This document shows positions 3,107 through 43,700 of a stretch of 56,025 nt of DNA, piece by piece. The translations under genes and the position numbers were made by a program. The notes beneath the pieces were generated by a model, which ran no database searches, was not told the origin of the DNA, and saw only the letters and a program-made list of their open reading frames with translations. The stretch is from Candidatus Aenigmatarchaeota archaeon (lineage in GTDB: Archaea > EX4484-52): the NCBI GenBank assembly GCA_023137195.1, contig JAGLPV010000006.1, positions 1 through 56,025 on the forward strand. The letters run 5' to 3'. The number at the start of each line of letters is the position of its first letter. Positions within the stretch are counted from its first letter, which is position 1.

Positions 3107-3116
3107 TTTTTGAATT

Positions 3117-7487: not shown

Positions 7488-7551
7488 TGTTTCGGTGCTC
7501 ACTGCGGAATTTGCTCTTTAGGGACAAATTCCTTTGTTCACTACCGAAACA
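7488..7551. repeat. Nested hairpin abutting the tRNA 3' end
   Basis: Outer arms TGTTTCGGT (7488-7496) and ACCGAAACA (7543-7551). Inner arms GGAATTTG (7506-7513) and CAAATTCC (7525-7532). Confidence 0.7.
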
Positions 7552-7634: not shown

Positions 7635-7652
7635 TTAATAGGTTATTTCTAC

Positions 7653-7762
7653 TTATATCGCGGCACAGTAATGCAAGTATGTGGCGCGATATACTAGCAA
7701 AATACATAAATACTATCTAAATACAGATATTATATCTTGTATTATTTATGTGTTTTGTTATA
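7653..7762 (+). repeat. Internally deleted copy of 10721-11049, including a copy of the glyS 3' end
   Basis: Blocks TTATATCGCGGCACA, AATGCAAGTATGTGGCGCGATATA and ATATACTAGCAAAATACATAAAT...TATTATTTATGTGTTTTGTTATA occur here contiguously and at 10721, 10878 and 10975. Confidence 0.9.
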
Positions 7763-7765
7763 CAT

Positions 7766-8683: not shown

Positions 8684-8707
8684 AATATTACTAATTCAAA
8701 TAATACA

Positions 8708-8715
8708 TTTTTAAA
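8708..8715. promoter_or_regulatory. Putative bidirectional TATA box between the pfkB gene and rps4e
   Basis: TTTTTAAA lies centrally in a 52-bp divergent gap, ~21-32 nt from both ATGs. Confidence 0.5.
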
Positions 8716-8735
8716 GCTAATTACAAACTTACTTT

Positions 8736-12698: not shown

Positions 12699-13334
12699 AT
12701 GGAAACCAAAAGAAAGATAGTCTTTTTAAGTGCCTTATTTGTTATTGGTATTTTGCTGGTTGGTTTAACTATTGCAAAGCCAAACGATAGAGCACAAAAA
12801 GCATGCAGAGACGGAATAGACAACGATGGAGATGGATATGTGGATCTGGACGACCCAGGATGTAGTTCAAAAAATGATATAAGCGAACTAAATTCCGGCG
12901 TGGAATGTGATGACGGAATAGACAACGATGGAGATAATTCAGTAGACTACAACGATGCCGGATGCAGTGGACCAACAGACAATGATGAAACCAATTGCGG
13001 AGATAGTGTTTGTGAAGGAGGAGAGACACAACAAACCTGCCTGGAAGACTGCGGATACCCAGAATACTGTGGAGATGGTACATGCAACGCTAACGAAACA
13101 CAACAAACCTGCCCGGAAGACTGCGGATACCCCTTTTCGTGCCATGATACAGATGGAGGCTTTTCAATAGATATACAAGGGACTGTAATCGGATACAATG
13201 GAATAAATTATACATATACAGATTATTGTTCTAATAACATCACATTGACAGAATATTACTGTCTTGGAAATGAGCCACAGAGTTATGAATTATCTTGTAA
13301 TATGAGCTATTGCCATATAGGAAGATGCGTTTAA
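12699..13334 (+). CDS. Secreted or membrane-anchored Cys-rich protein with Ca-binding-like repeats
   Basis: N-terminal hydrophobic helix, 2x C.DGIDNDGD..VD..D.GC, 2x CGD..C...ETQQTC.EDCGYP, and a C.DTDGG...G...YTDYC...L.EYYC module. Confidence 0.85.
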   Translation: METKRKIVFLSALFVIGILLVGLTIAKPNDRAQKACRDGIDNDGDGYVDLDDPGCSSKNDISELNSGVECDDGIDNDGDNSVDYNDAGCSGPTDNDETNCGDSVCEGGETQQTCLEDCGYPEYCGDGTCNANETQQTCPEDCGYPFSCHDTDGGFSIDIQGTVIGYNGINYTYTDYCSNNITLTEYYCLGNEPQSYELSCNMSYCHIGRCV

Positions 13335-19770: not shown

Positions 19771-22700
19771 ATGCGAAAAAAATCACAGACGAATCTAAAA
19801 TTTACTACATTTTTATTAACATTTACCGTCATTTTCGCATCATTATTTTTTCTTTCTTCAACCGGAAATTTTTGGACTTGGGGACAGGAAAAAACAGACA
19901 TTATTACAATAAATTCACCCACACCAAACAGTGTTCTTGACTCAAAAACAATTCCAATAAACCTGACTCTTCTAAACACAACATCCGGCTATGTTTACAT
20001 ATCAATTTTTCAAAACCAGGCGATAATAAATTCAACAGCAATTGAGCTTGAAGGAGAAACAGGTAAAAATTATGAATCAAGTATATCTGTCTTTGATGAC
20101 GGAACATATAATGTTGATTTGACAGTATGCAATTCAACAGATAACTGCACCTCTCACACCATAGAAAATATTTCCATAATGACTTCTGGTAATTCTTCTT
20201 TCGAACAGGAAAACACCACAATCCAACTCCCTCAAATATACGATATTATTCCAAATTCGTATTCAATATTCTTAGGAGATATGCTGTCCATCCTGGCAAA
20301 GTTAAGTTACTCCAATCAAACCTCTGTCCAAAACAGCAAAATCACATATGAAGAAAACCAGACGATTCTAGGCACAAATTATACCGACCAGACCGGTTGG
20401 TCTGTACTTTATATAAATACAACTGGCAAAGGGGTTGGAAACCACACCATAAATGTGACTTCAATCTACGGCACATACAATACAACTATTGTGGAGTTTT
20501 TTTCACCAAATAATTCTGATGAAACACAAGACAATGCCACCAATGAAATCGAGGAAAACATTACAATCCAACTCCCTCAAATATACGAAATCATCCCCAA
20601 TTCTTATTCCATTTTTTTAGGAGATATGCTCTCTATCCTAGCAAGATTGGGTTATTCAAACAATACCTCTGTCCAAAACAGCACCCTTACTTTCTGGCAA
20701 AACCAGGAGATAATAGGACAGAATAATACTAATCAAAATGGCTGGTCTACACTCCACATAAATACAACTAACAAAGAGTTTGGAAACCACACAATAAATA
20801 TAACTTCAGTTTACGGAACATACAATACAACCACCATAGAGTTTAAAGAACAGGAAAATACAACCAATACAACTGGTGAAACAGTTGAAAATACAACAAA
20901 ACAAAAAGACAATCAAACTACCCTCAATATCTTTAATTCTACGACAATTGAAGATAATTGGACGGTTAAATTTAATACAACCGGAATTGCAGACCTCTGG
21001 ATATCAGTTGTTGACGGCACAACATGGAGCGACGCTGACGAAACAGAAGATTTGAAATTCATTCAAATAAGATGCGGAAGTCAAACATTGGATTATATAT
21101 GGAGGAACAATTCTGTTTTGGTTCAAAATTATTCATGCACACAAGCAGGTTATGTAATCTCTAAAATATTTACCGCAGGAAAACACAATCTAAAATTCAC
21201 ATTCGGCAACAACACAGCTTATGCCAATTGCACCAGTATAGATAAGTTAACAGATTTACAAAAAGAATATGACCCACAGACCAAAACAATCACAATCACA
21301 AAAAAACCAAAGAAAAAATTACTATCTCTTAAACTAGGAGGGAAAGAAAAAATCGCAGAATTCCAGTTGATTAATAATACAGACCACTGCTTCATCGACT
21401 GCGAGGCAGTAATAAAATTCACAGCATATCAGAACATCCCAATCCCAAAAGACAAGGACAACAAATTCAAGTTCAAAGGAAACCTGAAATCATTTTCATC
21501 TGAAATAGATGGAGCTGATTTCTTTGACAAGAATTACAAAGCAGGAGAATATTACATAACTTTGAAAGGAAAAAAGAATCCTTTTGACAACGTAGACTGG
21601 ATTCCAAGAATATTCGGCATAGACTTTGACGAATGGGCATGGTGGAATTCAACCTTTGACAAGAAGCAGGAAATCCAGATAAACAATACAGACAAGGAAG
21701 TTGCCAATTATTCTTTGCTTATCAATGTCTCGTATGATTCTGACATGCTCTCCAACTTTGCTGACCTACGGTTTGCCGATGCTTCTGAAAACGAAGAATT
21801 GTCTTACTGGATTGAGAACAAATCAGACGGAAGTTATGCAGATGTCTGGGTAAAGATTCCATACACTTTGACGAATACGACGAATACGACAATCTATATG
21901 TATTATGATAATGCAAGTGCAGTTGAAAGTAAAAGCAACATAACTAATGCATTTTTATTTGCAGACGATTTCAACGATAACTCTTACGACACAGGCAAAT
22001 GGGACGAAGTATACTTCTTAGGTTCGGCTTGCGGTTCCATAACAGAAGCAAATGGCAGGCTAAACATAAGCGCTACAAGAAGCGGCACCAACTGTTATCT
22101 CTATTCTATATCAAAAACAAATCTTTCCGGGATTGATACAATCACAACAGGGGATATAGTTGATTCAAGTATATTGGGTTCTGATTATCACGGGGGTGGA
22201 TTACACTATGAAATAAATAATACAGATAATATTTTTATCGGAACATATAAACTTTATAATACTGATGGATTCTATATGAGGAGCTACCATAGTCCCGATA
22301 GTTACCAGCCTTCTGATGTTTCACATAGTTCTGTATCATGGAATGCGACAATCATACACACAAATACATGGATAACAAAATATGATAATACAGTTCACAT
22401 GAATGCTTATACTGAAACTAACCCTCTTTCAGGTGAATTCCCTGCAATCTATACCTCCTCGCCCACAACCGATGGCAACTCCTGGATTGAATATGACAAT
22501 ATAATCAGTCGCGTATATCTTTCAACAACCCCGACATATTCATTTGTAACAGAAGAAGATCAGCCCCCCCACATAGACTTTGTTAATTCGACAACCGCTC
22601 CAGGGACATACAAGCAGACCTATATTGAAGCAAACATAACCGCCTCTGATGATAATATTGACACAATAACTCTTTATCTTTACAACTCAACATCTTTGGT

Positions 22701-25700
22701 GCAAACTGATACTTCATCAACTTCGCCTTTATTTGTAAATTACACAAGTCTGCCTCTTGAGACCTATTATATAAACGCAACAGTAAACGACACTGCAGCA
22801 AATACAAACCAGACCGGGACAAGAACAATATCTCTAAAGGATATCTCTCTTTCTATTAATCTCAACAGCACAACAGTCAATCCAGAAGAAACAATCGAAA
22901 TATCCGGTTATGCAACCTTACAACCCGACGGGACAAATGTCACAAACAACACAATATATATCTGGCAGGACAATTCTTTGATAAATATTATAAATAAACC
23001 AGATTATGTTTCTATTTGGTGGAACACAACTTTCCAGAAAAAGAAAGCAATCCAGATAAATAACACAGATATAGAAGTCGCAAATTATTCTCTTTTACTA
23101 AACATAACTTACGACTCTGACATGAACTCAGACTTCTCAGACATAAGATTCACAAATGTTTCAGAAAATGAAAAACTCAACTATTGGATAGAAAGCAAAG
23201 TCGATAGCTCTTATGCAAACATCTGGGTAAATATACCCTACACTTTGACAAATACAACAAACACGACAATCTATATATATTATGGTAACACTTCTGCCGT
23301 GAGCAGCGAAAGCAATGGCTCTGCAACATTCGATGCATTTGGTTCTGGTGGAGATATAACATCTTATGATAAATATCTTATCCATACTTTTACTGAATCC
23401 AGTACATTTACACCAACTGTAAATATGAATACAGAATACTTAGTCATAGCTGGTGGAGGTGGAGGTGGCACTGCAAATAATGGAAATTCTGGTGGTGGTG
23501 GCGCAGGAGGATATAGAAGTTCAGTTTCTGGGGATTCATCTGGTGGAGGCGCAGCAGCAGAATCACCTCTAGTTCTAACAGCAGACACAGGATATACTGT
23601 AACTATTGGTGCCGGCGGCGCAGAATATACAAACGGAGGCAACTCTGTCTTTGGTAGTATCACTTCCATAGGTGGTGGGAAAGGAGGATATTATAACGCG
23701 GTTGCCGCAGGCAGTGGTGGTTCTGGAGGAGGGGGAGGACAATCTCATGATCTTGGAGCATCTGGAACAGCAAATCAGGGATATGCAGGAGGTCGTTCAA
23801 GTGCAACAGGTGGTATTGGTGCTGGAGCTGGTGGTGGCGCAGGAGCAGTTGGAGGCGCTTCATATGGCACTGATGGTCGTGAAGGCGGTCATGGTGGTAT
23901 AGGAGTAGCAAGTACTATAACAGGAACATCTATCTATAGAGCAGGCGGTGGAGGCGGCTCTACTCATGGTCAAGGAACAGCAGGTATTCCTTCAGGTGGA
24001 AATGGCGGTGGTGGTAATGGTAAGTATGCATCATCTGTAAACGCTACAAACGGCACTATAAATACAGGTGGCGGCGGCGGCGGCGGCGGCGAAAATAATC
24101 CATCAGGAATTGGTGGTTCTGGTATCGTAATAGTGCGATATGTATCTAGAACTAATATAAGTACAGAACCAACCACATCATTCAGTTCAGAACAATCCCT
24201 AACCCGAACAGACTCAAACGGGCAATACAATTACACTTTCACAGCATCTCAATACGCTGGTGCTTACACAGTCAAAGTAAACCTGACAGACTCAAACTCA
24301 ATCTACGGAGAGAACGAAACAACATTAAACATAAAAATCAATCTTACAAGTCCGACAGCAACATCAACCACATCCGGCACAGTCTATACAAACCCAACGG
24401 AGACAATCAACCTGACTGTAACTATCCCAACCTCAAACATTAACTGCCCAACATTGAACCTCTCCAATGTCTGGGCAAACATAACAAAACCAACAGGTTC
24501 TGAACTAGTCCAGTTATCCGGCTCTGTGCAGGGAAACACTTGGGACGGAACCTTCACAAATACTGATGAAACAGGAACATACAATATAACATACTATGCC
24601 AATCTGACTGATGGTTTCAGCCACGTAACCACGACAACAACCTCATTCTATGTCAAGAACATCTCAGTCACGCTAAATCTTGATAATACAATAGTAAACC
24701 CATCTCAGAACGTGGAAGTTTCAGGAAAGGCAACATTGCAGCCAGACAATACAAACATTACAAACAACACAATCTCAATATGGCAGGACAACACCCTAAA
24801 ATTAGGAGGATCTTGGTGGAACACAACCTTCCAGAAAAAGAAAGCAATCCAGATAAACAATACAGACAACAATATAGCAAACTATTCCTTACTCCTAAAC
24901 ATTACATACGATTCAGACATGAACCCAGACTTCTCAGACATAAGATTCACAAACAGTTCAGATAATGAAGAATTAAGTTACTGGATAGAAAGCAAATCAG
25001 ACAGTTCTTATGCAGATGTCTGGGTAAAAATACCATATAATTTGACAAATACCACAAACACGACAATCTATATGTACTATGATAATACATCTACTGTTTC
25101 GAGCCAAAGCAATGGAAACAATGCATTTGAATATTTTGAAGATGGTGAAGATGCAAGTGATTGGTCTTTCACTCTTGGAAGCGGAACAGTAGAGTCTTCA
25201 ACAGATCAAGCCTTTGAAGGCAGCAAATCTATTAAAATATCCGCTGTTGGTGGAGCAGATACAGCTACAACCTATTTTGATTCTGTAACCAGAGATGCGC
25301 TTACTCATGCTTTTGGATACAGGGTCATGATCTCAAGTACATCTATGACAACACGACAATATTTACTTAATCCTAACAGTGAAGATGAAGTAAGTGTTTT
25401 CACAGATTGGGTTGCAACTGATCCAAATGGATGGAGTCATAAAAATAATTCTGGCAGTGTTGTAGCATTTAGTCCTGTAATAGATGTTGTAGCAAATGAA
25501 TGGATGAAATTAAATTATGAAAATATCACTTCAACAGAATGTGATTTTTATATAGATGATTATTTCAGACATGATACTTGTTCTAATGGAGCTCAAGACC
25601 AATTCCATAGTTTTGGTGTTACTTTAGATGAAACACAAACAGTATATATTGATGCATTAATAATTAGAAAATACATAATCCCTCCAACATCCTCTTTCGG

Positions 25701-28700
25701 CACAGAACAAAACCTTACCCAGACCGACTCAAATGCACAATACAACTACACCTTCACAGCATCTCAATACGCAGGAAACTACACAGTCAAGGTCAACCTC
25801 ACAGATTCAAACTCAATCTACGGAGAGAACGAAACAACCCTGAACGTAAAAATCAACCTCTCAAGTCCGACAGCAACTTCAACCACATCAGGAACAGTCT
25901 ATGCAAACCCGACAGAAACAATCAACCTGACAGTAAATATCCCAACATCAAACATAAACTATCCAACATTGAACCTCTCCAATGTCTGGGCAAACATAAC
26001 AAAACCGACAGGTTCTGAATTAGTCCAGTTATCCGGTTCTGTCCAAGGAAACACATGGGATGGAACATTCACAAACACAGATGAAACCGGAACTTACAAC
26101 ATAACATACTACGCAAACCTGACCGACGGTTTCAGCTATGTGACCACAACAACAACTTCTTTTTATGTCAAGAATGTTTCAGTTTCAATCAATCTAAACA
26201 ATCCAATCTCAAACCCATCTGAAAGTGTCGAAGTGTCCGGATATGCAACCTTGCAGCCAGATGATACAAACATAACAAACAACACAATTCATATTTGGCA
26301 GGATGACTCATATGCAATAAGCTGGTGGAACACAACCTTTGAGAAAAAGAAAGAGATCCAGATCAACAACACAGACAACGAAGTTGCCAATTACTCATTA
26401 CTCCTCAACATAACTTATGACTCTGATATGAACTCAGATTTCTCTGACATAAGATTCACAAACAGTTCCGAAGATGAAGAACTATCTTACTGGATCGAGT
26501 CCAAAGTAGATTCTTCTTATGCAGATGTCTGGGTAAAGATTCCATACACATTGATCAACACAACAAACACGACAATCTATATGTATTATGGAAACACATC
26601 GATTGTGAGTAGTGAAAGCGATTATTTTAATGCTTTTCTATTAAGTGATAATTTTGATGATAATTCAATAGATACATCATTATGGACATCTGAAAGTGGA
26701 ACTCCGACAGAAAGTAGTGGTATTTTAACAGTAGATGGAACCGATGGCACAAGAGATGCTTTATGTAGTGTCGTCAATATTTCACGACCATTTATTATCG
26801 AAGTAGATGGTAAATCAACTGCAAACGATAATTGGAATCTCTATTTAGCTTGGACTCCTGATTCAGCAACATCTAATACTCACATGACTTTACGGTATCA
26901 TGGAGGTGTAAATTATTGGGCAGATGATGATGGTGCTGGAAATTATCATGCGTGGGCTGTATCTGATGATGATAATAAGTGGGTAAATATGACTATGATT
27001 GGTAGGGAAAACATGACCTCATATTTTAAGAAAGTGTCTTCAACAGCAACACAGATTAAAGATTATAACAATGTTGGTTCACACACAGAACATTTAGTCT
27101 GTTTGATGCAATGGGGAGAAGGTGCAGGCACAGGTCTTGGATATTTTGATAATATTATAGTTAGACGATATTTAGAGACAACTCCAACATCCTCATTTGG
27201 TACAGAACAACTCTACACTCAAACAGACTCAAACGGGCAATACAACTACACCTTCACAGCATCCCAATACGCCGGAAACTACACAGTCAAGGTCAACCTC
27301 ACAGACTCAAATTCAATCTACGGAGAGAACGAAACAATCCTGAATGTAAAAATTAATCTTACAAGCCCAACTGCAACATCAACTACCTCAGGCACAGTCT
27401 ACGCAAATCCAAGTGAAACAATAAACCTGACAGTAAATATCCCGACCTCAAACATCAACTCCCCGACACTTAACCTTTCTAATGTCTGGGCAAACATAAC
27501 CAAACCCACAGGTTCTGAATTAGTCCAGTTGTCCGGATCCGAAGAAGGAAACCAATGGGACGGAACCTTTACAAATACACAAGATAGTGGAACCTACAAC
27601 ATAACCTATTATGCAAACCTGACCGACGGTTTCACTCATATAACCACAACCACAACATCTTTCTATGTCAAGAATATCTCAGTCACGCTAAACCTTGATA
27701 ACACAATAGTAAACCCATCCCAGAACGTAGAAGTTTCAGGAAAAGCTACATTGCAACCCGACAATACCAATATCACAAACAACACAATCTATATCTATCA
27801 GGATGATGTATCCGTAATAACCTGGTGGAACTCAACCTTTGAAAGAAAGAAAGAAATCCAGATAAACAACACAGACATAGAAGTTGCAAATTACTCATTG
27901 CTTCTAAACATCACATACGATTCAGATATGAACTCTGACTTCTCTGACTTAAGATTCACAAACAGTTCAGAAGACAGATTATTAAACTACTGGATCGAAT
28001 CTAAAGTAGACAGTTCTTACGCCGATGTCTGGGTAAAGATTCCATACAATCTGACCAACACCACAAACACGACGATCTATATGTATTATAATAATAATAC
28101 GGTCATTGAAAATGTAATTAGTTATACTAATGCCTTTTATTATTCTGATGATTTTGAAGATAATGACTATACATCTAATCCTGTATGGTCTGTTGAAGAC
28201 GGTACATGGGTTATAGATACAAAAACATTAAAAGGAGGTAGTGCAGGTTCAAGTTATGGGCATATTTACTCTGATATGCCTTCATCAATTAATTTAGTGG
28301 ATGTAGAATTTAAATTTAAATTTTCCGATCTAGCTGCAGCAGGAGAAAGCATTTCTTTTTATCTGCAAACTGATTCAAATGTAGGTTATGTATTGTATAT
28401 CCAACAGAGTGGGGGGTATGATTTATATATTGGTGATTTTTCATCAAATATTATTGATGTTTCATGGTCTCCGGATACGAATTGGCATACTGCAAGGATT
28501 ACAAGACGAAAAGACTCAAATCTGACAATATATTTAGATGACACAGTTAAAGGTTCAGTTGTGGATATGACAATGAATTCATTTAATAGGATAAGAATAA
28601 GGAGAGGTAATTATGCAAATTTCTACATGTATGCAGACAATATATCAATTAATCATTTTATTATAGCTCCAACTTATTCATTCGGATCAGAACTGTTAAA

Positions 28701-31700
28701 GACCGACTCAAACGGGCAATACAACTACACCTTCACATCTTCATCAACTCTTGGTCAACATACAATCAAGATAAATCTTACAAATCCAAACTCAATCAAA
28801 GGCGAGAACGAGACAACAATAGACGTACGAAACCTTACATATTCACAGTTCAACCTATCCGATTCAGACAGCCAGTTGAACAACATATTAAACCCGGCAG
28901 AATCCTACAACGCAACAGTAAAGATACGTGAATACAACGGCTCGGATTACTTCGATGTAACTTCCGGGACATTCACAACAACAATAGCAGGAACAACCTA
29001 TTCTCTAAACCATATAGGAAGTTCAGTCTGGCACACAAATGAGACCCTAACAGCATTGTCATCTTTAGGCCAGCAATCCTTCCTTGCAAACATAACTGGA
29101 ACTTCAGGAAACGGCATAACAGACTCAATACAAGACACAAACTATACTTACAATGTCAAGAACATCTCAGTCTCAATAAATCTCAACAGCACAATAGTTA
29201 GTCCGGAAGACACAATAGAAGTTTCAGGATATGCAACATTACAACCCGACGCAACAAACGTGACGAACAATAATATCTTGATCTGGCAGGACAACATAAA
29301 AATAGCAGGAGCAAGCACCTGGTGGAACGCAACATTCCAAAAAAAAAAAAAGATAAAGATAAACAACACAGACAATGAAATCGCAAATTATTCATTATTA
29401 TTAAACATATCTTATGACTCTGACATGAACCCAGACTTCTCTGATCTAAGATTTGCAAATGGTTCAGATAATGAGGAATTATCTTACTGGATCGAAAGCA
29501 AATCAGACAGTTCTTACGCAGATGTTTGGGTAAAGATCCCCTACACTCTTTCAAACACAACAAATACGACTATTTATATGTACTACAAGAATTCAACGGT
29601 TGTTACAAGTAGAAGCAATATTACTACAGCAGGTATATTTGGCGATGATTTTGAAGATCATGTAACTGACTGGGAAAATGAGAACAGTTGGACAACATCC
29701 AATAATGGTGGATATATTGATTTGAAGAGTACTGATTGTTATGCTGGCACGAAATGTGGATTAATTGAAGTAGCACCATCTAATGATCCACACGTAGGGT
29801 TTGAGCCATTACAATTATCATCCGGTAGACTACAATTCATGATGCGTGAGAGTTTCGCAGGTTCAGTTGGCAGAATATCATTCCAAACTTTTGATGGTGC
29901 AACAAAATATATATATTCTTTTTTCGGAACTTCGAGTGCAAAGGATTTGAAATATTATGTGTCATCATCTATAGATACAGGCACAGATTATACACCTGAT
30001 GTATGGAAGAAAGTTATATATGAATGGGATAGTTCTACTTTTGATTGGTATTATGACGGCATAAAAATAGTTGATGATGGATTATATCAGGATAGTGGTT
30101 CGTATACAAATGGTATTGACGAAATAAGATTCGTTGGGATGGCAGTCAATGACCAAGCAGAAATCGATAATGTATTCTATACAGCATCTCTATCAACAAC
30201 CCCAACCTCATCATTCGGCGCAGAACAATCATTGATACAAACCGACTCAAACGGACAATACAATTACACCTACACAGCATCTCAATACGCCGGAAACCAC
30301 ACAGTCAAGGTCAACCTCACAGACTCAAACTCAATCTATGGTGAAAACGAAACAACCCTAAACGTAAAAATCAACCTGACAGACCAAACAGCAACATCAA
30401 CTTCAACAGGAAATTCAAACGCAAACCCATCAGACACAATCAATCTGACAGTAAACATCCCAACATCAAACATCAACTACCCGACCCTAAACATCTCCAA
30501 TGTCTGGGCAAACATAACAAAACCAACCGGCTCAGAAATAGTCCAGTTATCCGGCTCAGTACAGGGAAATACATGGGACGGAACATTCGCAAACACAAAT
30601 GAAAAAGGAACATATAACATAACCTATTATGCAAACCTCTCAGACGGTTTCAGCCACGTAACCACAACCACAACATCATTCTATGTAAAGAACATCTCAG
30701 TCACACTAAACCTTGACAACACAATAATAAACCAATCCCAGAACGTAGAAGTTTCAGGATATGCAACCTTACAACCAGACAATACAAATATCACAAACAA
30801 CTCTATCTCAATCTGGCAGGATAATTCTTTGTTAAATGCATGGTGGAACACAACTTTCCAAAAAAAGAAAGAGATCCAAATAAATAACACAGACAACGAG
30901 GTCGCAAACTATTCATTATTATTGAACATAACCTACGACTCAGACATGAACCCGGACTTCTCTGATCTAAGATTCACAAACAGTTCAGAAAATGAAGAAC
31001 TAAACTATTGGATTGAAAGCAAATCAGACAGTTCTTATGCTAATGTCTGGGTAAAGATACCTTATGAATTAACCAACACAACAATCTATATGTATTATAA
31101 GAATAATACAGCAGTTGAAAGTGAAAGTAATATAAAAACCGCTTTTATCTTAGGTGATTTTGAAACCGGCACATCAACAATAGATACAGATATATGGACA
31201 CAAGGTACAAATCCCGTAACAGCAACAGCGAATGGAGATTGGACAACATTAACAACAGGTGCAACTGACCCATCTTTTATAAAGTCAAATATTTGGTTTG
31301 ACCGTGCTGGTTATATGATTCATTTAGATTGGGAAAATAATAATATTAATCCATATGTAGCGGTTGGTATAATGGATGGCGCGATGGATGGTGCTACAAA
31401 TACAATATATCAAATGCTCGGCGCACCAAATTATATAAAATTAAGAACAGAAAAAGATAACGTTCAAACAGACCCAGCCCAAAATATTTTATCTAATCAT
31501 AATATAGTTCATAATATGGTTTTATATTTCAACAGTACAGAAGCAACATGGGCTGATAATTCAAGTGATGGTAATTTTGCAGGTTCATCAACAACAAATA
31601 TTCCCACCATAGATTTAGAATTTTGGATTGCCGGATATATTGGTGGCAGTCATCCTTTTAGTATAGAAGTAAGGAATTTGTATATTACGAAATGGTTACA

Positions 31701-34700
31701 AACAACTCCAACATCTTCCTTCGGTACAGAACAATCTCTAACCCAGACTGATTCAAACGGACAATACAATTACACTTACACAGCATCCCAATACGCCGGA
31801 GAATACACAGTCAAGGTCAACCTGACAGACTCAAACTCAATCTACGGAGAAAACGAAACAACCCTGAATGTAAAAATCAATTTAACCAGCCCGACAGCAA
31901 CCTCAACATCAACAGGAAATTCAAATGCAAACCCATCAGACACAATCAACCTGACCGTAAACATCCCAACTTCAAACATAAATTACCCAACCCTAAACAT
32001 CTCAAACGTCTGGGCAAACATAACCAAACCAACAGGTTCTGAACTAGTCCAGCTCTCCGGCTCTGTGCAGGGAAATACATGGGACGGGACATTCACAAAC
32101 ACAGCGGAGAGCGGAACCTACAACGTAACTTACTATGCAAACCTTACAGACGGTTTCAGCCACGTAACCACAACAACAACCCAGTTCTATGTCAAGGACA
32201 TATCCGTCACGATCAACCTCAACGACACAATAGTTAACCCCTCTCAAACTGTAGAAGTTTCAGGCTATGCAACATTACAGCCAGACGGAACAAACATAAC
32301 AGATAATATAATTAAGATATATCTCGATAATAAAAACATTTTCATAAATCTTACTGCAAATGGGATTTATTCTCATTTCAATCTAATCCAGTCAACTGAC
32401 AGCCATTTCAATTCAGGTACAACAAATAATACTGTTATAAGCGGATCTGGTGAAAATGGATATATAGGATTGTCTTCTTATTCCGCAGAAAAAGATATGT
32501 GGGATATATCTCCTGCAGATAGTGCAACTTTTTCTACAGGTGCGGATTTATCCTATCCTGGTTCAGGGGATTATATCTATGCTACAAAAGGCTCAGGTCA
32601 GGAGTTCTACCGTTACTCAATTTCGATTGACAGCTGGAGCGGTCTTGCAAATCTTCCTGCCAGTATCGGTGAAGGTTCTGATTCCATTGCAATAGATGAT
32701 TATGTTTACGTTGTCAGAGGAAATGGTTATACTGATTTTTGGAAGTATTCCATAACTTATAATAATTGGTCTGTTTTAACATCATCTCTTGCAAGTATTA
32801 ATTGGGGAGATTCAATAACATATCCTGGATCAGGCGATTACATTTATATCCCCCGCGGATATGATACTTCTACTTTTTGGAAATATTCCATTTCAGGAGA
32901 TAACTGGTCTACTTTAACCTCTGCTCCCGACGGTATTACGTATGGTTCAGAATTGGTTTCTGACCTGGCATTAGGAGATTATATATATACTATAGGAGGG
33001 TATTCATATGATTTCTATCGCTATTCTATTTCAGGAAACAATTGGTCTGCTACTGATGAACTTGCTGATGTACCGGGATATATAGGTAATGGCGGATGCG
33101 CTGTATATCCTGGCTCTGGCGATTATATTTATGCTTTGAAGGGAAATGGTGGACTCCCCTTCTATCGCTATTCTATTTCAGGAAACAATTGGGATAGTAT
33201 GGCTGATGCTCCTGCAACTATTGAGTATAGTTCATCTTTAGTTTATCCTGGCTCGGATAATTATATTTATGCTATTCGTGGAGGAAATAGTAATGATTTT
33301 TGGCGCTACCAGTTCAGGGAAAGCATATTTTATTCATCTGCAAATTTCACATCTTCAGTTATATATAGCAACCAGCAACCTGATTTCAAAAACATGACAT
33401 GGTCTGCAACAACAAATGAAAACACTACAGTAAAATTCCAGTTGTCTTCGTCATCAGACAATATCAGCTGGACATCTTTTGTAGGTCCGAACGGAACAAG
33501 CGAGGATTATTATAATATTTCCGGAACCACACCATGGTCAGGCCACAAGGGACATAGATATATTAGATATATGGCTTTCCTTGATACAACAAACATAACT
33601 CAGACCCCTCAACTGCATAATATTACAATTAATTATACGACGTCTATGACCGACTCAAACGCCAAATACAATTACACTTACACAGCATCTCCAACACTCG
33701 GAACCCACACCCTAAAAGTAAACCTCACAGACTCAAACTCAATCTACGGAGAAAACGAAACAACATTTGATGTAAGAAACCTAACCTTCACCCAGTTCAA
33801 CCTCTCAGACTCAGACACCCAGATGAACAACATCTTAAACCCACAAGAATCATACAACGCAACAGTAAAGATAAGAGAATACAACGGCTCCGATTACTTC
33901 GACGTAACTTTAGGGACATTCACAACAATAATAGCAGGAACAACCTATTCCCTAAACCATATCGGCAGTTCAGTCTGGCACACCAATGAAACTCTAACAG
34001 CTCCATCCTCTTTAGGACAGCATTCCTTCCTCGCAAACATAACAGGAACATCAGGCAACGATATAACAGACTCAATTCAAAATTCAAATTATACCTATTA
34101 TGTCAAGAACATCTCAGTCACACTAAACCTCGACGAAACAATAGTAAACCCATCACAGAACATAGAAATTTCCGGTAAAGCAACCCTACAACCCGACGCA
34201 ACAAACATAGCAAATAACACAATGTATATCTGGCAGGATAATTCACTGGCAGATAGTTCAAATCCGGGAAGGTATATGTCTACTCTGGGGGGAACATGGA
34301 AATACAGGAAAGCAATAACAATAAACAACACAGACAATGAAGTCGCAAATTACTCATTACTCCTCAATATAACCTATGACTCTGACATGAACCCTGACTT
34401 CTCTGACATAAGATTCACAAACAGTTCAGATAACGGGAAATTGAGTTACTGGATAGAAAGTAAAGTTGACAGTTCATACGCAGATGTCTGGGTCAAGATT
34501 CCATACGCTTTGACAAACACAACAAATACGACAATATATATGTATTATAGTAATACTTCTGCTGTTTCAAATGAGAGCAGTAGTGTAGATGTTTTCGGTG
34601 CAGATGCTACCTACGATACTTTCTCCGGATGGACAGAAGTAGATACATCCGGTAGAATATTATACACAAATAATAGAATAGAATATACCAACATGAATCT

Positions 34701-37700
34701 TGGCGATGATTCGCATACATATATGACTTTACCCGATTCCGGAACAAATTATGAAGCCACATTTAAATGGTTAATTTCATCATATACCGGGCAGGTTAAT
34801 AATTTGATTGGTTTTGGAGATGTTGCAGGAACTATGTGTGGTGACACTCCTTTTAATCAGGGTTCATCAATAATATTTAATATTGTAAGCGGACCTTCTA
34901 AAATGCGCCTTTATCTAATTGCAGGAAATTCAACAACATCTTCAGTGGTTAATTCAACGTCAACATATTATGGAAATAGTGATGTTATTGATTATAATAC
35001 TGTAGTCTATTCAAAATTATTATATGATGGAGAACATGCATGGATGTATAGTTATTCCGATGAAGCAATGACATCAGAAATAGCAGATAGTCGTCTGTCT
35101 GTTGCAGTAACAAATTTAGCTGATTTTAATTACTTCATGTCAATCGCAGCATATAAGGATTTTATTGCAGGCAGATATAGTACTGGTTGGGTTGATGATG
35201 TTAAAGTCCATAAATATCTTTCAACAACCCCAACATCTTCATTCAGTTCAGAACAATCTCTGACCCAGACCGACTCAAACGGACAATACAACTATACCTT
35301 CACAGCATCCCAATATGCAGGAACCCACACAATCAAGACAAACCTCACAGATTCAAATTCAATCTACGGAGAAAACTCAACAACCCTAAACGTAAAAATC
35401 AACCTCACAACCCCAACAGCAACCTCAACCACATCAGGCACAGCCTATGCAAATCCATCAGAAACAATCAACCTTACAGTGACCATCCCGACCTCAAACA
35501 TCAACTATCCAACTTTAAACCTCTCAAACGTCTGGGCAAACATAACAAAACCAACGGGTTCTGAATTAGTCCAATTATCCGGCTCTGTGCAGGGAAATAC
35601 ATGGGACGGAACCTTTACAGATACAAATGAAATAGGAACATACAACGTAACATACTACGCAAACCTTACAGATGGTTTCAGCCATATAACTACAACAACA
35701 ACTTCTTTCTATGTAAAGAACATCTCAGTTACGCTAAACCTCAATGATACAATAGTCAATTCGGCAGACCGTATTGAAGTATCGGGATATGCAACATTAC
35801 AACCCGACGCAACAAATATAACAAACAACACAATCTCAATCTGGCAGGACAATACAGTTATATTGGGGGGCAATTGGTGGAACTCAACCTTTGAGAGAAA
35901 GAAAGCAATCCATGTAAACAACACAGACAATGAAATCATCAACTACTCATTATTACTAAACATAACATACGACCCGGACATGAACCCGGACTTTTCGGAT
36001 TTGCGTTTTACAAATAGTGCAGGAGACACTTCATTAAGTTATTGGATTGAAAATAACATATCTTCAACTTACGCAGATGTTTGGGTAAAAATACCATACA
36101 CTTTGACAAACACAACAAACACGACAATCTATATGTATTATGGAAACACCACTGCTGTAAATACAACAGGAAACGCAACAAACACATTTATATTCTGGGA
36201 TGATTTCGAGGATAACGATATTTCCGATTGGAATATAGTACTTGCTGGTGGTGCATCTTGTACTGTGAGTGGTGGAATAGTACATACAGAAGCAATACAT
36301 AGTACAGAAAGATGTTATATGCAAAAAATAGGTATATCAAATGAATATGATAATGTAATTGAATCAAGAGCAAAACAAACATTTGTATCGGGCAATAGTA
36401 TTGGTGTAATAGGTTATGGTGGTAAGTTCATATATATGGGCAGAGAAGATACTGACCAGACAGAAGTTATGTATCGATATTATGACCCCGGCAATGTTGA
36501 ACAGAATATATTGAATATTGATGTTGGTGTCAATATCCAAACACAATATAATATCTGGAGTATCAGTTTCAATCATGGCACAACAAATTATGCCCGATTC
36601 GCAATCAATTATAACTTTTCTACAGATTATGCTGTATATGCTAGTGGAACAACAGATATATGGTTAGGACAATCGGGTTATAATACGGGACATGATACTT
36701 ATTTTGATTGGGTACGAAAGAGGAAATTTTTAAATACAACCCCAATAACATCATTCGGTGCAGAACGATTTATTGCCCAAACCGATTCAAACGCACAATA
36801 CAACTACACCTTCACATCCTCATCTACACTCGGAACCCACACATTAAAAGTAAACCTAACCGACCCAAACAACATAGCAGGAGAGAACGAGACAACATTC
36901 GATGTAAGAAACCTAACCTTCACACAATTCAACCTCTCAGACTCAGACACCCAGATGAACAACATATTAAACCCGGCAGAAGCCTACAACGCAACAGTAA
37001 AGATAAGAGAATACAACGGCTCCGATTACTTTAATGTAACAAGTGGCACATTCACAACAATAATAGCAGGAACAACATATTCTCTAAACCACATAGGAAG
37101 TTCAGTCTGGCACACAAACGAATCCTTCACAGCTCCATCCTCATCAGGACAGCACTCCTTCATTACAAACATAACAGGAACATCAGGTAACGGCATAACA
37201 GATTCAATACAAAATGCAAACTACACATATTATGTCAAGAACATCTCAGTCACACTTGATCTTGACGATACAATAGTCAACCCATCCCAGAACGTGGAAG
37301 TTTCAGGAAAAGCAACACTACAACCGGACGCGACAAACATAACAAGCAACATAATTTCTATCTGGCAGGACAATACCTATATAACAGGAGCGAGCAATTG
37401 GTGGAACACAACTTTCCAAAGGAAGAAAGAGATACAGATAAACAACACAGACCTGGAAATTGCAAACTATTCTCTTTTACTGAATATAACCTACGATTCA
37501 GATATGAACCCGGACTTTTCTGATTTGCGATTCGTAAATGGCTCGCATAATTCAGAGCTAAATTACTGGATAGAAAGCAAATCAGACAGCTCTTATGCCG
37601 ATGTTTGGGTAAAGATTCCATATGAACTAATCAACACAACAAATACGACAATATATTTATACTATAAGAATAATACAGCCGTTTCAAGCAACAGCAACAT

Positions 37701-40700
37701 AAAAACCGCCTTTGTTTTCGGTGATGATTTTGAGGATACAGACTTTAGTGAATGGACAGTAGATGCTGCGCAGACATGGTCTAGAAGCACAACACAGGCA
37801 CAGGATGGAACATATTCTCTAAAGATTGTTCAGAATCCAAATACCGCAACAATAAGTTACAAGGATATTACAGCAGATCAATATGTGATATCAGGATGGA
37901 TATATCAGTTTGCAAACGGTGGTTTTGTAACACCTTATCAATATCATTTCCAGATTAGAGAAGGAGGAGGGAGTAGTACACAAAGTCTTGCTTATGAGAC
38001 ATATATTGGCGATACAGAAGAGCCACAGGCGACCTATAGGTATGGAGGAGCATACCATAAAGATGGAGTAACAAGAACAGCAAAATGGCGTAAGATAAAT
38101 ACAGTGACAAATAGCAGTGGTACTTTCTTATATGTTGATGACACATACCGGGGGAGTGATACATGGACAACAGTAGACAGAATACAGTTTTATTTTTACC
38201 ACAAAAATGGAATAAGTGGTGATACAGGATATATTGACACAGTATATGTAAGAAAATATCTTTCAACAACCCCGACATCCTCTTTTGGTGCAGAACAATC
38301 TCTAACAACAACAGACTCAAACGGACAATACAACTACACTTTTTCCACATCTCCAACACCCGGAACCCACACATTAAAAGTGAACCTAACAAACTCAAAC
38401 AACATAGCAGGAGAAAACCAGACAACATTCAGCGTAAGAAACTTAAAAATAGACAACTGGCAGATTTTAGATGCTCACACAGAAACAGATGCAGTCCTTT
38501 ACTCCCTTGAAAACTTCAACATAACAATGCTGATCAGAGAATACAACGGCTCAGATTACTTCAACATAACATCCGGAACATTCAATATAAGAATAGAGGA
38601 AACAAGCGACTACAAATCATTGACACACCAGTCCGGTGCAGAATGGAAAGCAGAATTCACCGCCCCAAACTCAAGTGGCACATATACAATAGAACTAAAC
38701 GGCACAACTCCAAACGGAATCAACGGCAATAACCAAACGACCTTCGAAATCCCCGAAAACTTCAACATAACTTTACTAAATTCCACAGGCAGCCCAATCC
38801 AGAACAACAAGATAACAGTCTACCAGACAGGAACATCTACGGTTGGATGCGAAGCAGACACCGATGCAAACGGAAAAATAAAATGCAATCTGGAAAACAC
38901 AACAAACTACGACATAGACATAGACAATTACGACGGAAACATCCTGAACATTTCCGCCCCTCTAAACATCACACTCCAGCCATTAAACATAACAGTACTC
39001 AACCACAACTCAATTCCAAAGCAGGATGTAGTTGTAGACATATATTCAGCAGGCAATTTAATCTCGACAGCAACAACACACTCCAACGGCAAAACAAACT
39101 TCACTCTAAACAATTCCGCCCTATACAACATCACAGTGTTCGGAAATACCGAGCCTTCAATACAGGAAGTATCAGTTCCATCCTCAAAAACAATAAACCT
39201 AAACCTCACATTAACCGCAACCATGGCAGACACAATCATAATGCCCGGCATTACAAATACAGTATCCGGAACAATTATCCTTCTGCCGGACAACACAGCA
39301 ACAGCTTTCAACCCAGTCAACATTTACCTAAACGAAACCCTCCTCACTGTCGGAAGTTTCCTGAACAAGACATACAGCACAAATGACGATTTATCCAATG
39401 GCACCTCTGTAAATGTCACAAATTCCTCAGACACATTAACACTTGACCCGAGAGGAGAATATTATTTTGAGGCAGAAAACTACATCTCGTCATCAGGCAT
39501 AACCGTCAGAAATAATGGCTACCAGCCGTGGGATGGAGACCCTTCAGGAAACCAATACGCAGAAGGCACACATCCTGCATGGGCAAATTACAATATAACA
39601 AATATCCCGGATGGCAATTATTACATATTTGTAAAGATGTATGCAGGCGCGACAGACAGGATGGTAAATATTACATGGGATGGAAATATAGTAGACACTA
39701 CAGCCTTCGGTTCATATTCCGGCGACATCTTATGGAGCAATGCCTTGTCTCAAACAGTCACAAAGAATTCAACATCGCACACATTGGGTTTCAATTCAAC
39801 CTCCAGCAACCCGTACATAGATGTAATCCTCCTTACAACAAACGCTTCCTTTACCCCTGACAACATAGACCAGAACTACACCAACACCCCTCTAAAATAC
39901 AGCGGTCATTTCACATCAAACAAGACAACAACAACAACTCATCCAATAATCTCCATCACCCCATCATGGCAGTCAAATGAGCCTTCTGGCTCAAACATAA
40001 CAATAGACATCTCAGCAGACAACGGAACAAACTGGTGCGAAGATGTAACCCAATCCCAGGAATACAGAACCGGCGCTTCATGCGGTTCAATCGGCACAGG
40101 CACAGAAATTGTATGGCGCGCAACTCTAAATACAAACAACTCTTTTGCAGATTTAAAACTCCACAACATCACATTAAACTACGAGACAGGAAACGCAACA
40201 AAGACAAACACCTCGGGTCAATACACATTTACCTTCTCCAGCGGCTCAACCCCTGGATGGTACACAGTCAAGATAAATACAACAGATTCAAACAGCATCT
40301 CGGGAAACATTACAACCACATACTTGGTTGACACTTTTTCCATTACAACAGACACTCTGCCCAACACAGCAGATGCAGATACGCTCTCACAGACAATAAC
40401 CACAAGCATAAACTCAAACACAGGAAGGACATCAGGAAAAAGGCACAACATAACAGCAACAATCACAAATCCTGACTCAACGCAGGACACAATACAAAAT
40501 TCAAGCATCTCCTGTTCAGACAATTATCCAATGACTTGTTCTGCCACATGGACCCCGGGAACAACACAGCCTTTCGGCTGGTACAACATAACCATAAACT
40601 ACGAGGACAACGAAAGCATAACAGGACAGAACACGACATACAATGACTTCAAAGTTGACAATATTACAACAAGTTTTACTTACATACCAGCAATACCGAT

Positions 40701-43700
40701 ACTATCAACAGAGAATATTACAGTAAACGGCACTGCGAATTTCTTCTATGACGGAAGTCCTGTCCAGAACAGGTCTGTTGGCATTTATATTGATGATGAA
40801 CCGGTCACATTAGACTGGTGGAATTCAACTTTCCAGAAAAAGAAAGAGCTACAGATAAACAACACAGATATAAAAGTCGCAAACTATTCCTTGCTCTTAA
40901 ATATAACCTATGATTCTGACATGAACTCAGACTTCTCTGACCTAAGATTCACAAACAGTTCAGAAGATGAAGAATTATCCTACTGGATAGAAAGTAAAGT
41001 CGACAGTTCATATGCAGACATTTGGGTAAAGATTCCCTGCTCTCTAACCAACACGACAAATACAACAATCTATATGTATTATAAAAACACTACAGAAGTA
41101 TCGACCGAAAGCAACATCAAGACAGCATTTTTAATTGGTGATGATTTCGAGGATGGGACATTAGATGCATGGAATATAAATCTTGATGGCGCAACAATTG
41201 GCGTGAAACAATATTCAAATAATAATTATGTAGCATATATAAAAGATAGTGGTGGATCATTAAGATCTCATGTAACACAGATGACTACTATATCCTCAGA
41301 ATATGTTATTGAAGTTGAAGTAAATCAGACTGGTAATAATGCAGTTGGTGTTGGTCAAGTAGAATCATTAGGAAATGTTCCAATTTTACCATTATATCAA
41401 ACTTACGATGGAATTGCATATATACATGATGGTGTTGACCAGCAAGAAGGAAGTGCATGCTGTACTTTTGATATATTCAATTCATGGGAAGCAGTTCAAA
41501 CAGGTACATCATGGGAACTCTTTGTTAATGATGTTTCAAAAGCAACAAACACAGGAACAGCAAGCGCAAAACAAGGATTTGGTTTTATGGGTAGTGATGG
41601 GGGAGCTGGTGATTTTGATAATTTTAGAGTACGAAAATACCTCTCATCAACTCCAACCTCATCATTCGGATTAGAACAATCCAGCGCATTAGTCCAGACC
41701 GATTCAAATGGAAACTACGGAAAAACATTCCCCGCCCCAACACAAATAGGAACCCACATAATAAAAATCAACCTCACAGACTCAACAGGCAACCTCCAAG
41801 GCACAAACCAAACCCAGGTAGAAGTCTGGGCGCCAACAATAGTAAACTATACAACCACCACAACATACAACACAAATACAGACTACAACATAACCGGATA
41901 CTACTGGAGAACAGACACAACCAATCCAATACAGGGACTGATAAACACAACAATATACAACAACACATACTCAATCTCAAAAACCTGCGAAAATACCGAA
42001 TGCCTAAAAACATTCACAATAGGACCAACAGGGGAATTAATAGGCGGAAACTACACAGTAAACATAACCGCCAACAACAACTCCGCATACTACATGCCAA
42101 ACTCAACCCAGTACAACATATACCTAGAAGAGCCCAAAGCCACGGGAACCCTGAACGCCGACAACAAGATAATAGCAGACATGACATATGGAATAGACTA
42201 TTCATTCAACCAGACAATAACACTAAACAACACCCATAAAGCAAAAATGCACACCCCAACCATAGCAGAACTGATTAACTACATTGGATGCAGCGAAATC
42301 AAATCCATTGAAAATCTGACATCCATGAACTGTTCAGACACACCGGTAAACTCCGCATGCTCTGTCAAGTTCAACGTAACCGTTACAGGCAGTGCATGCT
42401 CTCAACCACCATGCCCGATAGGATGTCTTGACTGGAATTCCAGCTGGATAAACAACGACAACACCGGAAGTTCAACCACCAACACAGATTATTTAGTATA
42501 TGTCAGCGGCAACCCAGACATGAATCTTTCCAAATATTTAATCAACATAACCGACAACATAGGAACAACCAACACAACGTCAATCAGTGTAGATAACATA
42601 GGAAATGAGAAACTGGGAGAAAGTAGCAACCCATCAAATAGCATATTCGTAGATTACATAAACCAGACGATGCCTTCTTCATGGATACAATTCTATTCAA
42701 CCGCCGCCCAGTGGAATGATGCAAACGACTACTGGGACTACCTGAACACCGAATACGGCTACACTCTCCAGGTAAACATAACAGCGGACAATTACACAGC
42801 AGGGACCTACACAGGAATCATAAACATAACATCTTACCGCCTCGGCAGTATCCAGACCTACAAAGAAATCAACGTCAGCATTACAATATCACCCGGATTG
42901 GCATTATCACAGGACTCGATAAACCACACAGAATACATCGGCACATCAAACATAACAAACATATCTGTGCAAAGCACAGGAAATTCACCAGTAACAAACA
43001 TCACAATAAATTACATCCTTGGAACACTTCCCGCAGAATGGATAGATTTTGCTTCCATAGAAGCAGGATGGAACGACACCTTAAATTCATTCAACAGCAT
43101 AACAGAATACACAAGCAAGATATTATCAGTAAACATAACCGCTCTGGACTACACTCCCGGCACATACACAGGAAAAATAAACCTAACAACAAATGAAAAC
43201 CTATACCGGACAATAAATGTTTCAACAACAATCACCCCGGCAATAAACACAACAATCAATTCAATCAACATCACCCAAAACATAAGCCATGCACAATCCA
43301 TATGCCCAAAAATACAAAGCACAGGCAATGCCCCGTTAACAAACATAACCATAGTACTAACAAACAGCACAATCCCATCAGGATGGCTGACAATAAATTC
43401 AACAGCACCAGAATGGAACCAGTCAACAAGCAGTTTCACAAGAATAACAGAAGAGACAAACAGAACATTAAACATAACAATTAAGGCGACAAGCTATATC
43501 CAGGGCACCTACACCGGAATATTAAACATCACCTCCTACGAAAACCAGAACACCCAAATAAACCTGAGCATAACAATAAATCCAAATGCCACAACATATA
43601 ATTTACAAAGAAACAACGAGCACGGAGAGATTATAGAACTATACCACATAATAAACTCAACAGGAAACACGCCATTGCTAAATGCAAACGCCACATACAT

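Follow-up and report, generated by a model that had tools for sequence, protein, structure and literature searches.

A giant surface protein of an Aenigmatarchaeota archaeon with twelve nested side branches and evidence of payload exchange

The stretch of DNA analysed here, called the window, is one whole contig of 56,025 nucleotides (JAGLPV010000006.1, assembly GCA_023137195.1) from a Candidatus Aenigmatarchaeota archaeon with a genome of 1.42 Mb (85% complete). It encodes a giant surface protein of 10,910 amino acids (aa) in a single open reading frame (ORF) at 19771-52503 (+), and this 32.7-kb frame is uninterrupted by stops. An earlier reading made from the letters alone (the sequence-only reading) had described an array of repeated immunoglobulin (Ig)-like domains at 22840-41730, a range that lies entirely within this ORF. 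The domain order is a signal peptide, an Ig-like stalk with 12 side branches, a transmembrane helix, and a DUF87/HerA-like ATPase. By hydropathy, the only hydrophobic peaks start at aa 11, within the N-terminal signal or anchor (19771-19866), and at aa 10332, the beginning of the transmembrane anchor (aa 10332-10350; 50764-50820). The cytoplasmic P-loop ATPase (50926-51690) was assigned as DUF87/HerA/VirB4-TraG-like from Pfam matches (DUF87 40.7 bits, ResIII 28.1, TrwB_AAD_bind 22.2) and its Walker A (51001-51024) and Walker B (51379-51402) motifs. Relatives of this ATPase were searched in a comparison set of 42 genomes, which is the same at phylum, class, and order level; matches at E<1e-50 occurred in 27 of the 41 genomes searched, the source genome included, and often in frames of 2,000-12,000 aa.

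Within the ectodomain, N-terminal and C-terminal halves of a host domain alternate strictly to form 12 pairs, and the motif SG..L.PD is present in 11 of the 12 (the remaining one is a divergent copy). Each pair encloses an insert of 289-439 aa, as the sequence-only reading had proposed with its 12 split Ig-like hosts and inserts of about 290-440 aa. Most units then carry a spacer domain of 107-110 aa. Pfam DUF2341 was found above the gathering cut-off in 11 of 11 copies (58-77 bits), ten of them hosted and one unhosted (Pfam match at 21754). The latter belongs to a cassette, U0, that precedes the array at 21640-22545 (+; carrier 21640-21906, payload 21967-22509). The earlier census of ten DUF2341-based inserts and one Kelch-based insert was thus reproduced, the latter with Kelch_6 over the Pfam cut-off (43 bits), whereas the supposed CBM-like (carbohydrate-binding module) insert 11 was not confirmed; it has no Pfam match of note, and its nearest named Atlas cluster is CBM_6 at only 0.75.

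All units are encoded on the + strand. Unit 1 (22837-24339; host halves 22837-22974 and 24208-24339; insert of 411 aa) combines DUF2341 with a glycine-rich payload at 23344-24150, identified as Pfam Gly_rich_2; its match to the phage protein family phrog_2295 (E 8e-63), like that of insert 7 to a phage family (E 2e-23), is a lead only. The next five units are likewise built on DUF2341. Unit 2 (24655-25854; host 24655-24792 and 25723-25854; insert 310 aa) carries a beta payload with a marginal ConA-like link (25141-25662), followed by unit 3 (26170-27354; host 26170-26307 and 27223-27354; insert 305 aa) with a payload that is ConA-like by profile (26650-27162). Unit 4, which was modelled (27670-28833; host 27670-27807 and 28702-28833; insert 298 aa), holds a ConA/L-lectin/CBM66-like payload at 28150-28647. 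Profile-based ConA-like payloads follow in unit 5 (29158-30372; host 29158-29295 and 30241-30372; insert 315 aa; payload 29647-30180) and unit 6 (30688-31878; host 30688-30825 and 31747-31878; insert 307 aa; payload 31159-31686).

In unit 7 (32194-33780; host 32194-32331 and 33649-33780; insert 439 aa), a second type of carrier (approximately 32377-32478 and 33325-33636) surrounds a Kelch propeller payload at about 32479-33315. DUF2341 returns in unit 8 (34105-35400; host 34105-34242 and 35269-35400; insert 342 aa), with no fold assigned to its payload (34609-35208), and in units 9 (35716-36912; host 35716-35853 and 36781-36912; insert 309 aa) and 10 (37237-38442; host 37237-37374 and 38311-38442; insert 312 aa), the payloads of which are ConA-like by profile (36202-36720 and 37726-38250, respectively). 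The last two hosts are divergent. Unit 11 (39199-40335; host 39199-39336 and 40204-40335; insert 289 aa) has the second carrier at approximately 39361-39444 and 39904-40194 and a small beta payload at about 39445-39894, and unit 12 (40657-41829; host 40657-40797 and 41698-41829; insert 300 aa) has DUF2341 and a profile-based ConA-like payload (41143-41631).

That the two flanking halves belong to one domain is indicated by natural hosts that have no insert. A host profile built from the two halves was searched in related genomes and gave full-length, uninterrupted matches. Twelve such unsplit copies from 8 related genomes were aligned; each host of the window is 39-59% identical to its best unsplit match, with both halves contributing. 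The unsplit copies align across both window halves with an 8-residue gap between the compared columns, and at the insertion site nine of the 12 have a plain turn and three have 14 extra residues. In length and sequence, the halves of 46 and 44 aa match the complementary halves of a natural Ig domain of 94-97 aa. One unsplit host, from relative L036, exceeded the Pfam cut-offs for Big_6 (30.5 bits; cut-off 27.6), Big_13 (28.5; 27), and Big_7 (25.9; 24.1); three others that were tested gave only sub-cut-off Ig-type matches, and a sequence search of the PDB with an unsplit host gave only weak Bap-repeat matches (E 0.06). In L036, unsplit and DUF2341-filled hosts occur together in one ATPase-ended protein. 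Two N-terminal repeats of the giant protein itself (20221-20860) resemble degenerate unsplit hosts, the second with Big_1 at E 0.0055 and a weak host-profile match.

For a structural view, unit 4 was modelled with AlphaFold2 (AF2) from an alignment of 64 rows, i.e., 9 window units, 7 related split units, 12 unsplit hosts, and 36 of 261 retrieved proteins. The model reached a predicted local distance difference test score (pLDDT) of 88.7 and a predicted template modelling score (pTM) of 0.77, with both host halves at 89-97, and strongly suggests that the halves pair into one three-dimensional sandwich. An earlier model of unit 2 from a 10-row alignment (pLDDT 38) was discarded.

The carriers and payloads differ sharply in their conservation. 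Over the 55 pairs formed by the 11 DUF2341 copies, carriers were 66-91% identical (mean 80.8), but payloads (163-269 aa) only 17-30% (mean 22.7), and shuffled sequences already gave a mean of 20.3 and a maximum of 27.7. Payload identity is thus at chance level, and the earlier claim of a conserved carrier with a different payload in every copy holds. Neither of the two outcomes that the sequence-only reading had named as refuting was obtained, and the reading is upheld in its main lines. Its finer description fared less well. A strict DDFE start was found in five of the ten hosted payloads and a looser form in seven, and the content of Trp plus Tyr (4.8-12.6%, compared with 7.7% in the whole protein) amounts to a modest enrichment only. 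In a tree of 51 carriers, the 11 own copies fall into one subtree together with 8 foreign ones.

Beyond the window, the same construction was recovered from retrieved DUF2341 copies. A closing motif was present in 143 of 350 copies with room downstream (6 in shuffled controls), typically about 190 residues on, and DDF-led payloads were found in 248 of 419 copies. An empty DUF2341, in which the closing strand follows straight after the carrier, was not seen among the 459 copies, which were recruited with filled queries; two motif matches looked spurious. These data support a view of DUF2341 as a split pedestal with a distant closing strand, whose partner would be exchanged at fixed points. The sequence-only reading had taken DUF2341 for a display adaptor, and this gains from partner switches at F.F.DDF in other proteins with carriers that are 97-99% identical, but DUF2341 is not the sole adaptor, as a second carrier type and carrier-less inserts also occur.

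The second carrier became apparent from inserts 7 and 11, in which common N- and C-terminal blocks flank the payloads. A profile made from the segments of four relatives, with both inserts left out, matched their C-terminal blocks at E 6e-9 and 5e-18 and nothing else in the giant protein below E 0.02. An apparently empty second carrier was found in relative L079; a PDB sequence search gave nothing significant for this carrier or for insert 4. Because inserts 7 and 11 share the second carrier, all twelve inserts have three levels, i.e., host, carrier, and payload. Taken together, we regard this nested architecture as almost certain.

The host loop is filled elsewhere as well. The 40 regions fetched from relatives were picked for having matches and do not amount to a census; among them, 9 related genomes of 4 families have this loop filled, with five as the largest count in one relative. 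The fillings comprise DUF2341 with beta-sandwich, glycine-rich, LamG3, or RCC1-type payloads, a related carrier with FG-GAP propellers, and a repeat domain without carrier. In L071, L072, L077, and L079, the hosts contain a divergent Pfam-negative carrier with FG-GAP propellers, and these payloads, which lack the codon contrast, recur in conserved form across genomes of two families. In L034 (G032:C70, ORF 2-8974 (-), about aa 1020-1410), a DUF2341 cassette is apparently nested in the second carrier, giving four levels, and the junction concerned also opens the L072 frame. Other ATPase-ended frames in relatives reach 12,145 aa (G013:C8), 9,591 aa (G018:C30), 8,146 aa (G006:C16), and 7,378 aa (G021:C15); no DUF2341 was seen in the parts of these that were fetched. 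An orthologous array was not found in the same-genus genomes G001-G003 (57-75% complete).

With regard to the payload folds, residues 154-330 of the unit 4 model matched ConA-fold chains, the best being the sialidase BT_1020 (Z 19.0, root-mean-square deviation 2.8, 171 residues aligned). GH16 glucanases, the lectins Emp47p and calnexin, and CBM66 were also among the matches (Z 15-19, approximately 170 residues aligned), at sequence identities of only 7-19%. A payload 4 profile grown on foreign payloads only matched seven of the ten other payloads over their full length (E<1e-4; best shuffled value 0.019), namely U0, 3, 5, 6, 9, 10, and 12, which are thus ConA-like by profile only. The earlier label ConA/LamG-like therefore applies to payload 4 by structure and to these seven by profile; payload 2 is marginal, and payloads 1 and 8 showed no link to the family with this profile. 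Pfam LamG had no match in the giant ORF. The catalytic motif of GH16 enzymes is E-x-D-x-(x)-E, and it was found in none of the 11 payloads. An NCBIfam match to NirC and sub-cut-off Pfam matches to payloads were dismissed as chance.

The nearest Atlas cluster of insert 4 is listed as 89% viral, although on few records and hence as a lead only, and the top viral matches of the unit 4 model included two named DUF2341 proteins, Sulfolobus virus proteins, and TPX of TTV1. In the BFVD database, the carrier-plus-lectin unit was matched with TMq values of 0.40-0.57 by TTV1 TPX and by structural proteins from several Sulfolobus viruses, hinting that a DUF2341-lectin cassette may also be used on archaeal virions. 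One viral contig with a DUF2341 cassette was present among 38 pattern matches, too few for naming a donor pool.

The DNA of the payloads stands apart in its codon usage. As a measure, the fraction NNC/(NNC+NNT) in the two-fold C/T families was used. It was 0.09-0.24 in all ten hosted DUF2341 payloads and 0.20 in the Kelch payload, compared with 0.50-0.66 in the carriers of those payloads, 0.72 in the hosts, 0.66 in the spacers, 0.65 in the non-repeated distal stalk, and 0.69 in the cytoplasmic tail; the genome median over 735 ORFs was 0.34. When amino acid and next base were controlled for, the payloads showed 85 of 563 (0.15) against an expected 0.60, with a sharp step at the closing strand, which rules out such context effects as the cause. 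The contrast was also present in ten of ten copies of two arrays in genome G032. The simplest reading would be that the payloads came later than the stalk, from DNA of a different bias.

Retrieved copies from elsewhere gave a second line of evidence. Among 586 pairs (437 copies) with carriers at least 70% identical, payload identity was below 35% in 253 pairs, 35-60% in 13, and at least 60% in 320. In three bacterial proteins, carriers 98-99% identical precede payloads only 20-26% identical; an archaeal pair at 98% carrier identity has a ConA-like payload in one member and an FG-GAP-like one in the other; and behind carriers 93% identical, a ConA-like payload stands against a glycine-rich one. 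In two genes of genome G004, the DNA is 100% identical over most of the carrier, falls at the DDF motif, and recovers at the closing strand. Each of the 11 payloads of the giant protein finds a better best match among foreign payloads than among its siblings. Payload divergence, codon contrast, and bimodal identity together point to cassette exchange, and we hold with good confidence that payloads have been replaced. Read joints that replace a payload (e.g., 34574 to 35192) were set aside; their likeness is 85%, and they may stem from co-occurring relatives.

A number of observations weigh against this reading or narrow it. The codon measure is subject to a strong strand effect in the genome (approximately 0.45 and 0.25), a value of 1/18 is reached by one native ribosomal gene, and values of 0.14-0.21 by the low-GC genes that open the window. 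Payload 11 has native-like codons (0.51), and the carrier and payload of U0 both score 0.37. Outside the window, only 8 of 16 related split units show the contrast clearly, the six propeller units of G038 and G021 lack it, and the payload is lower than its carrier in only 43 of 68 fetched copies. The 586 carrier pairs are redundant and non-independent, and the foreign pool (459), for which unit 4 served in part as the query, far exceeds the sibling pool (10). A tblastn search of the 85%-complete source genome found neither a donor copy of any payload nor a library of silent cassettes; a payload-only search of longer proteins likewise gave none among 375 candidates at E<=0.001, which is weak evidence. 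Exact DNA repeats between units do not exceed 47 nt, and there is therefore no sign of very recent exchange within the gene. On the structural side, one of the 12 inserts was modelled, and the fold searches (residues 75-332) were filled by the lectin domain and are thus silent on the host and DUF2341 folds. The pairing of the host halves was judged from the confidence values of the model, and the 12 unsplit hosts in the alignment favour it. Moreover, a ConA fold alone does not show glycan binding, as GH16 enzymes and non-lectin domains score equally.

Among the other explanations, one keeps the architecture but dispenses with import, so that old resident payloads diverged in place under diversifying selection and gene conversion kept hosts and carriers alike. 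We consider this rather unlikely. In its favour, host halves and carriers have mosaic nearest partners and carrier DNA is 70-85% identical, both to be expected under conversion; most payloads also fall into a single superfamily, and the missing donor copies agree with it too. However, old residents should share the codon bias of the distal stalk, from which the payloads are far removed (0.15 compared with 0.65), only 13 of the 586 pairs are intermediate in payload identity, and the fold class changes behind carriers 98% and 93% identical. A further alternative concerns function and takes the branches as a protective or spacing coat, as virus decoys, or as devices for the capture or cutting of environmental polysaccharides, none of which involves partner recognition. 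The 526 N-glycosylation sequons of the ectodomain, the high rank of GH16 glucanases and sialidase accessory domains in the fold searches, the viral proteins sharing the cassette, and an organism without known host would all suit it. Yet a coat would not need twelve unrelated heads, the payloads lack the GH16 catalytic motif, and the cytoplasmic ATPase ties the protein to giant proteins proposed, though not demonstrated, to act in host contact; we judge such a role unlikely.

Two doubts about the object itself can be met from the same data. If the flanking halves were separate small domains or linkers, the protein would be a linear string of beads, and the reliance of the half-to-half contacts on model confidence leaves some room for this. 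It is highly improbable given that the halves match complementary parts of one natural Ig domain, alternate strictly 12 times, and are both modelled with confidence. A chimeric assembly of repeats from several organisms appears hardly credible, although the gene is repetitive and was assembled from metagenome samples that also contain related organisms, and none of the listed contig pieces covers the full stretch. The junctions of host, carrier, and payload are crossed by contigs that other samples of this study yielded, at 0-7 differences over 0.6-1.8 kb, nearly all of unit 10 is present on one contig from another sample, the frame has neither a stop nor an exact repeat above 47 nt, and the layout recurs in the 9 other genomes.

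In our preferred explanation, the giant protein likely acts as a multi-specific adhesin, with recombination in the carrier arms replacing its heads. The chain would begin an Ig-like (Big_6-like) stalk domain and exit at the hairpin after the third main strand. It would then fold the carrier, DUF2341 in ten cases and the second carrier in two, leave it to fold the payload, come back with one closing strand, and complete the Ig domain before most units continue into the spacer. With both ends of every insert at a single loop, the payloads would project sideways without lengthening the stalk. The ConA-fold sandwiches, which make up most payloads beside one Kelch and one glycine-rich head, probably bind glycans on the surface of partner cells. 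The array most likely grew by duplication of host, carrier, and spacer, and payloads would afterwards have been replaced by homologous recombination in the conserved carrier arms on both sides. The data directly establish the layout of the sequence, the existence of unsplit relatives, the predicted fold of one payload, the pattern of divergence, and the codon contrast; from them we infer ligand binding, host recognition, the sideways geometry, the recombination route, and any ongoing swapping, and lean towards glycan or cell-surface binding as the function. The "dozen binding specificities" of the earlier reading would likewise be a deduction from fold and divergence.

The inserts would place 3,937 of about 10,300 extracellular residues off the stalk axis, and from typical domain size the remainder could make approximately 60 Ig-sized domains with a length in the order of 200 nm. 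Sequons are dense in the carriers (7.9 per 100 aa) and sparse in the payloads (1.0), which fits a shielded stalk with bare binding heads. A Ser/Gly low-complexity linker (49831-49890, approximately aa 10021-10040) is followed by the final extracellular domains and then by the membrane anchor.

The remaining genes of the window include one for a GH57 and others that, from their translations, we take to encode archaeal ribosomal proteins, glycyl-tRNA synthetase, and a diphthamide enzyme. For both carrier and ATPase, the nearest named homologues are from Aenigmarchaeota, Woesearchaeota, and Pacearchaeota, which suggests a DPANN lineage. The low-GC region (27-33%) at 344-7351 encodes a nucleotidyltransferase-aminotransferase fusion, a TPR protein, and a SEC-C protein; the codon bias of these genes is payload-like and unlike that of their neighbours, which hints at a foreign island. 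Amid the ribosomal protein genes, 12699-13334 encodes a secreted Cys-rich protein that repeats the motif CxDGxDNDGD and has no Pfam match. Only 20 nt past the giant gene, a coiled-coil-like ORF begins (52524-56025, more than 1,167 aa), which has internal repeats and no Pfam match, is truncated by the contig end, and is a possible partner of the cytoplasmic ATPase. Elsewhere in the source genome, a partial ATPase match opens contig C55, and contigs C1, C4, C35, C14, and C20 encode more giant ORFs (2,700-5,700 aa) without DUF2341. The only other DUF2341 of this genome is at C1:132516-134561 (-), in a 682-aa frame with an RCC1-like repeat payload and the same closing strand.

Hosts are known for only a minority of DPANN lineages, and the present locus narrows the question of how these archaea select and retain them to twelve discrete heads of approximately 140-280 aa with defined boundaries, and varied heads offer a testable idea of how such archaea could vary their attachment targets. 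DUF2341 would gain a concrete role as a pedestal with exchangeable partners, and a natural socket that takes lectin, propeller, and glycine-rich folds would also be relevant to protein display. It is conceivable, if less than probable, that DUF2341 is the socket of a recombination-based diversification of surface binding domains in DPANN archaea, Patescibacteria, other archaea, and their viruses, drawing heads from a pool that includes viral receptor-binding proteins. The N-terminal block of the carrier and the closing strand would then serve as homology arms for head capture, and SPEARE-type arrays would be multi-specific for hosts and change on ecological time scales. Such a system would be a cassette-swap counterpart to diversity-generating retroelements and would set host range in uncultured symbionts.

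For DUF2341 (PF10102), the accessible parts of earlier work place the domain in archaeal type IV pilus-associated arCOG03508 (PMC4858521), Methanococcus MMJJ_08210 (PMC10133366), large Patescibacteria proteins (PMC11809585), and Exb/Tol-type stator appendages (PMC12505986), and an adhesin role at pilus tips was already hypothesised within these sources. In the same parts, DUF2341 is treated as a simple domain, and a split form with a distant closing strand and exchangeable payloads is not described. Similarly, the accessible portions of the literature on archaeal giant proteins (including 10.1101/2023.11.21.568195 and PMC13059738) do not describe the present layout; the supplementary domain tables of the SPEARE papers could be relevant here. 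The ConA-like lectin/glucanase fold (CBM66, the L-type lectins Emp47p and ERGIC-53 and calreticulin, GH16, the lectin domain of sialidase BT_1020, a legume lectin of M. jannaschii) is shared by payload 4, which differs from these in its low sequence identity, the missing GH16 catalytic motif, and a ligand site that is not assigned.

SPEARE proteins of Nanohaloarchaeota and other DPANN are described in the accessible text of PMC6642349 and PMC10266531 with a signal peptide, a long Ig-repeat ectodomain, LamG-type domains, a transmembrane helix, a conserved cytoplasmic VirB4/TraG-like ATPase with a weak ResIII match, and a charged tail. By its layout, the giant protein would be a SPEARE-type protein. 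It shares the signal, the multi-thousand-residue ectodomain, the C-terminal transmembrane helix, and a VirB4/TraG/HerA-like ATPase, whose named relatives come from Woesearchaeota, Pacearchaeota, and Aenigmarchaeota; a LamG/ConA-type extracellular domain is present according to the predicted structure of payload 4. At 10,910 aa it exceeds the SPEARE example of 9,409 aa given in those portions, which describe tandem Ig domains and terminal propellers, but neither split hosts nor DUF2341 cassettes. Directly downstream, where a SPEARE locus would have a second VirB4-like ATPase gene, the part present on this contig shows the coiled-coil ORF, which runs off the contig end; the partial ATPase match noted above opens contig C55.

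The closest parallel to the branching itself is found in bacteria, where split Ig-like domains of RTX adhesins were reportedly treated by Graham et al. in 2024. As far as the available parts of PMC12077191 and bioRxiv 10.1101/2025.09.30.679566 go, RTX adhesins (AhLap; Ab3a, Lp1a-c, and others) project ligand-binding domains from split Ig-like domains, vWFA or CBM domains can themselves be split so that branches are nested, a single protein has as many as six CBMs (20-56% identical), and swaps of single CBMs have been reported. In both systems, the chain leaves an Ig-like stalk domain at a loop, forms a binding domain, and then resumes and completes the interrupted stalk domain. However, the giant protein begins with a signal and ends with a membrane anchor followed by a cytoplasmic ATPase, in place of the type I secretion signal, RTX nonapeptide beta-roll, and N-terminal retention module of RTX adhesins, and no RTX-related Pfam or NCBIfam match was obtained in the whole ORF. 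Its inserts sit mid-domain, whereas those of RTX adhesins follow the first strand or precede the last two, and a dedicated conserved carrier (DUF2341 or the second carrier) stands between host and payload, unlike in RTX adhesins. Its 12 branches bear ConA-fold, Kelch, and glycine-rich heads in place of PA14-like CBM, vWFA, or peptide-binding domains. The likeness of the two is likely convergent. The rule that split domains mark ligand-binding domains would thereby be extended from bacterial RTX adhesins to archaeal giant proteins; the design of a branch from a split domain was already known from RTX adhesins, and what distinguishes the giant protein is its scale of 12 branches, its two-step nesting, and the evidence of payload exchange.

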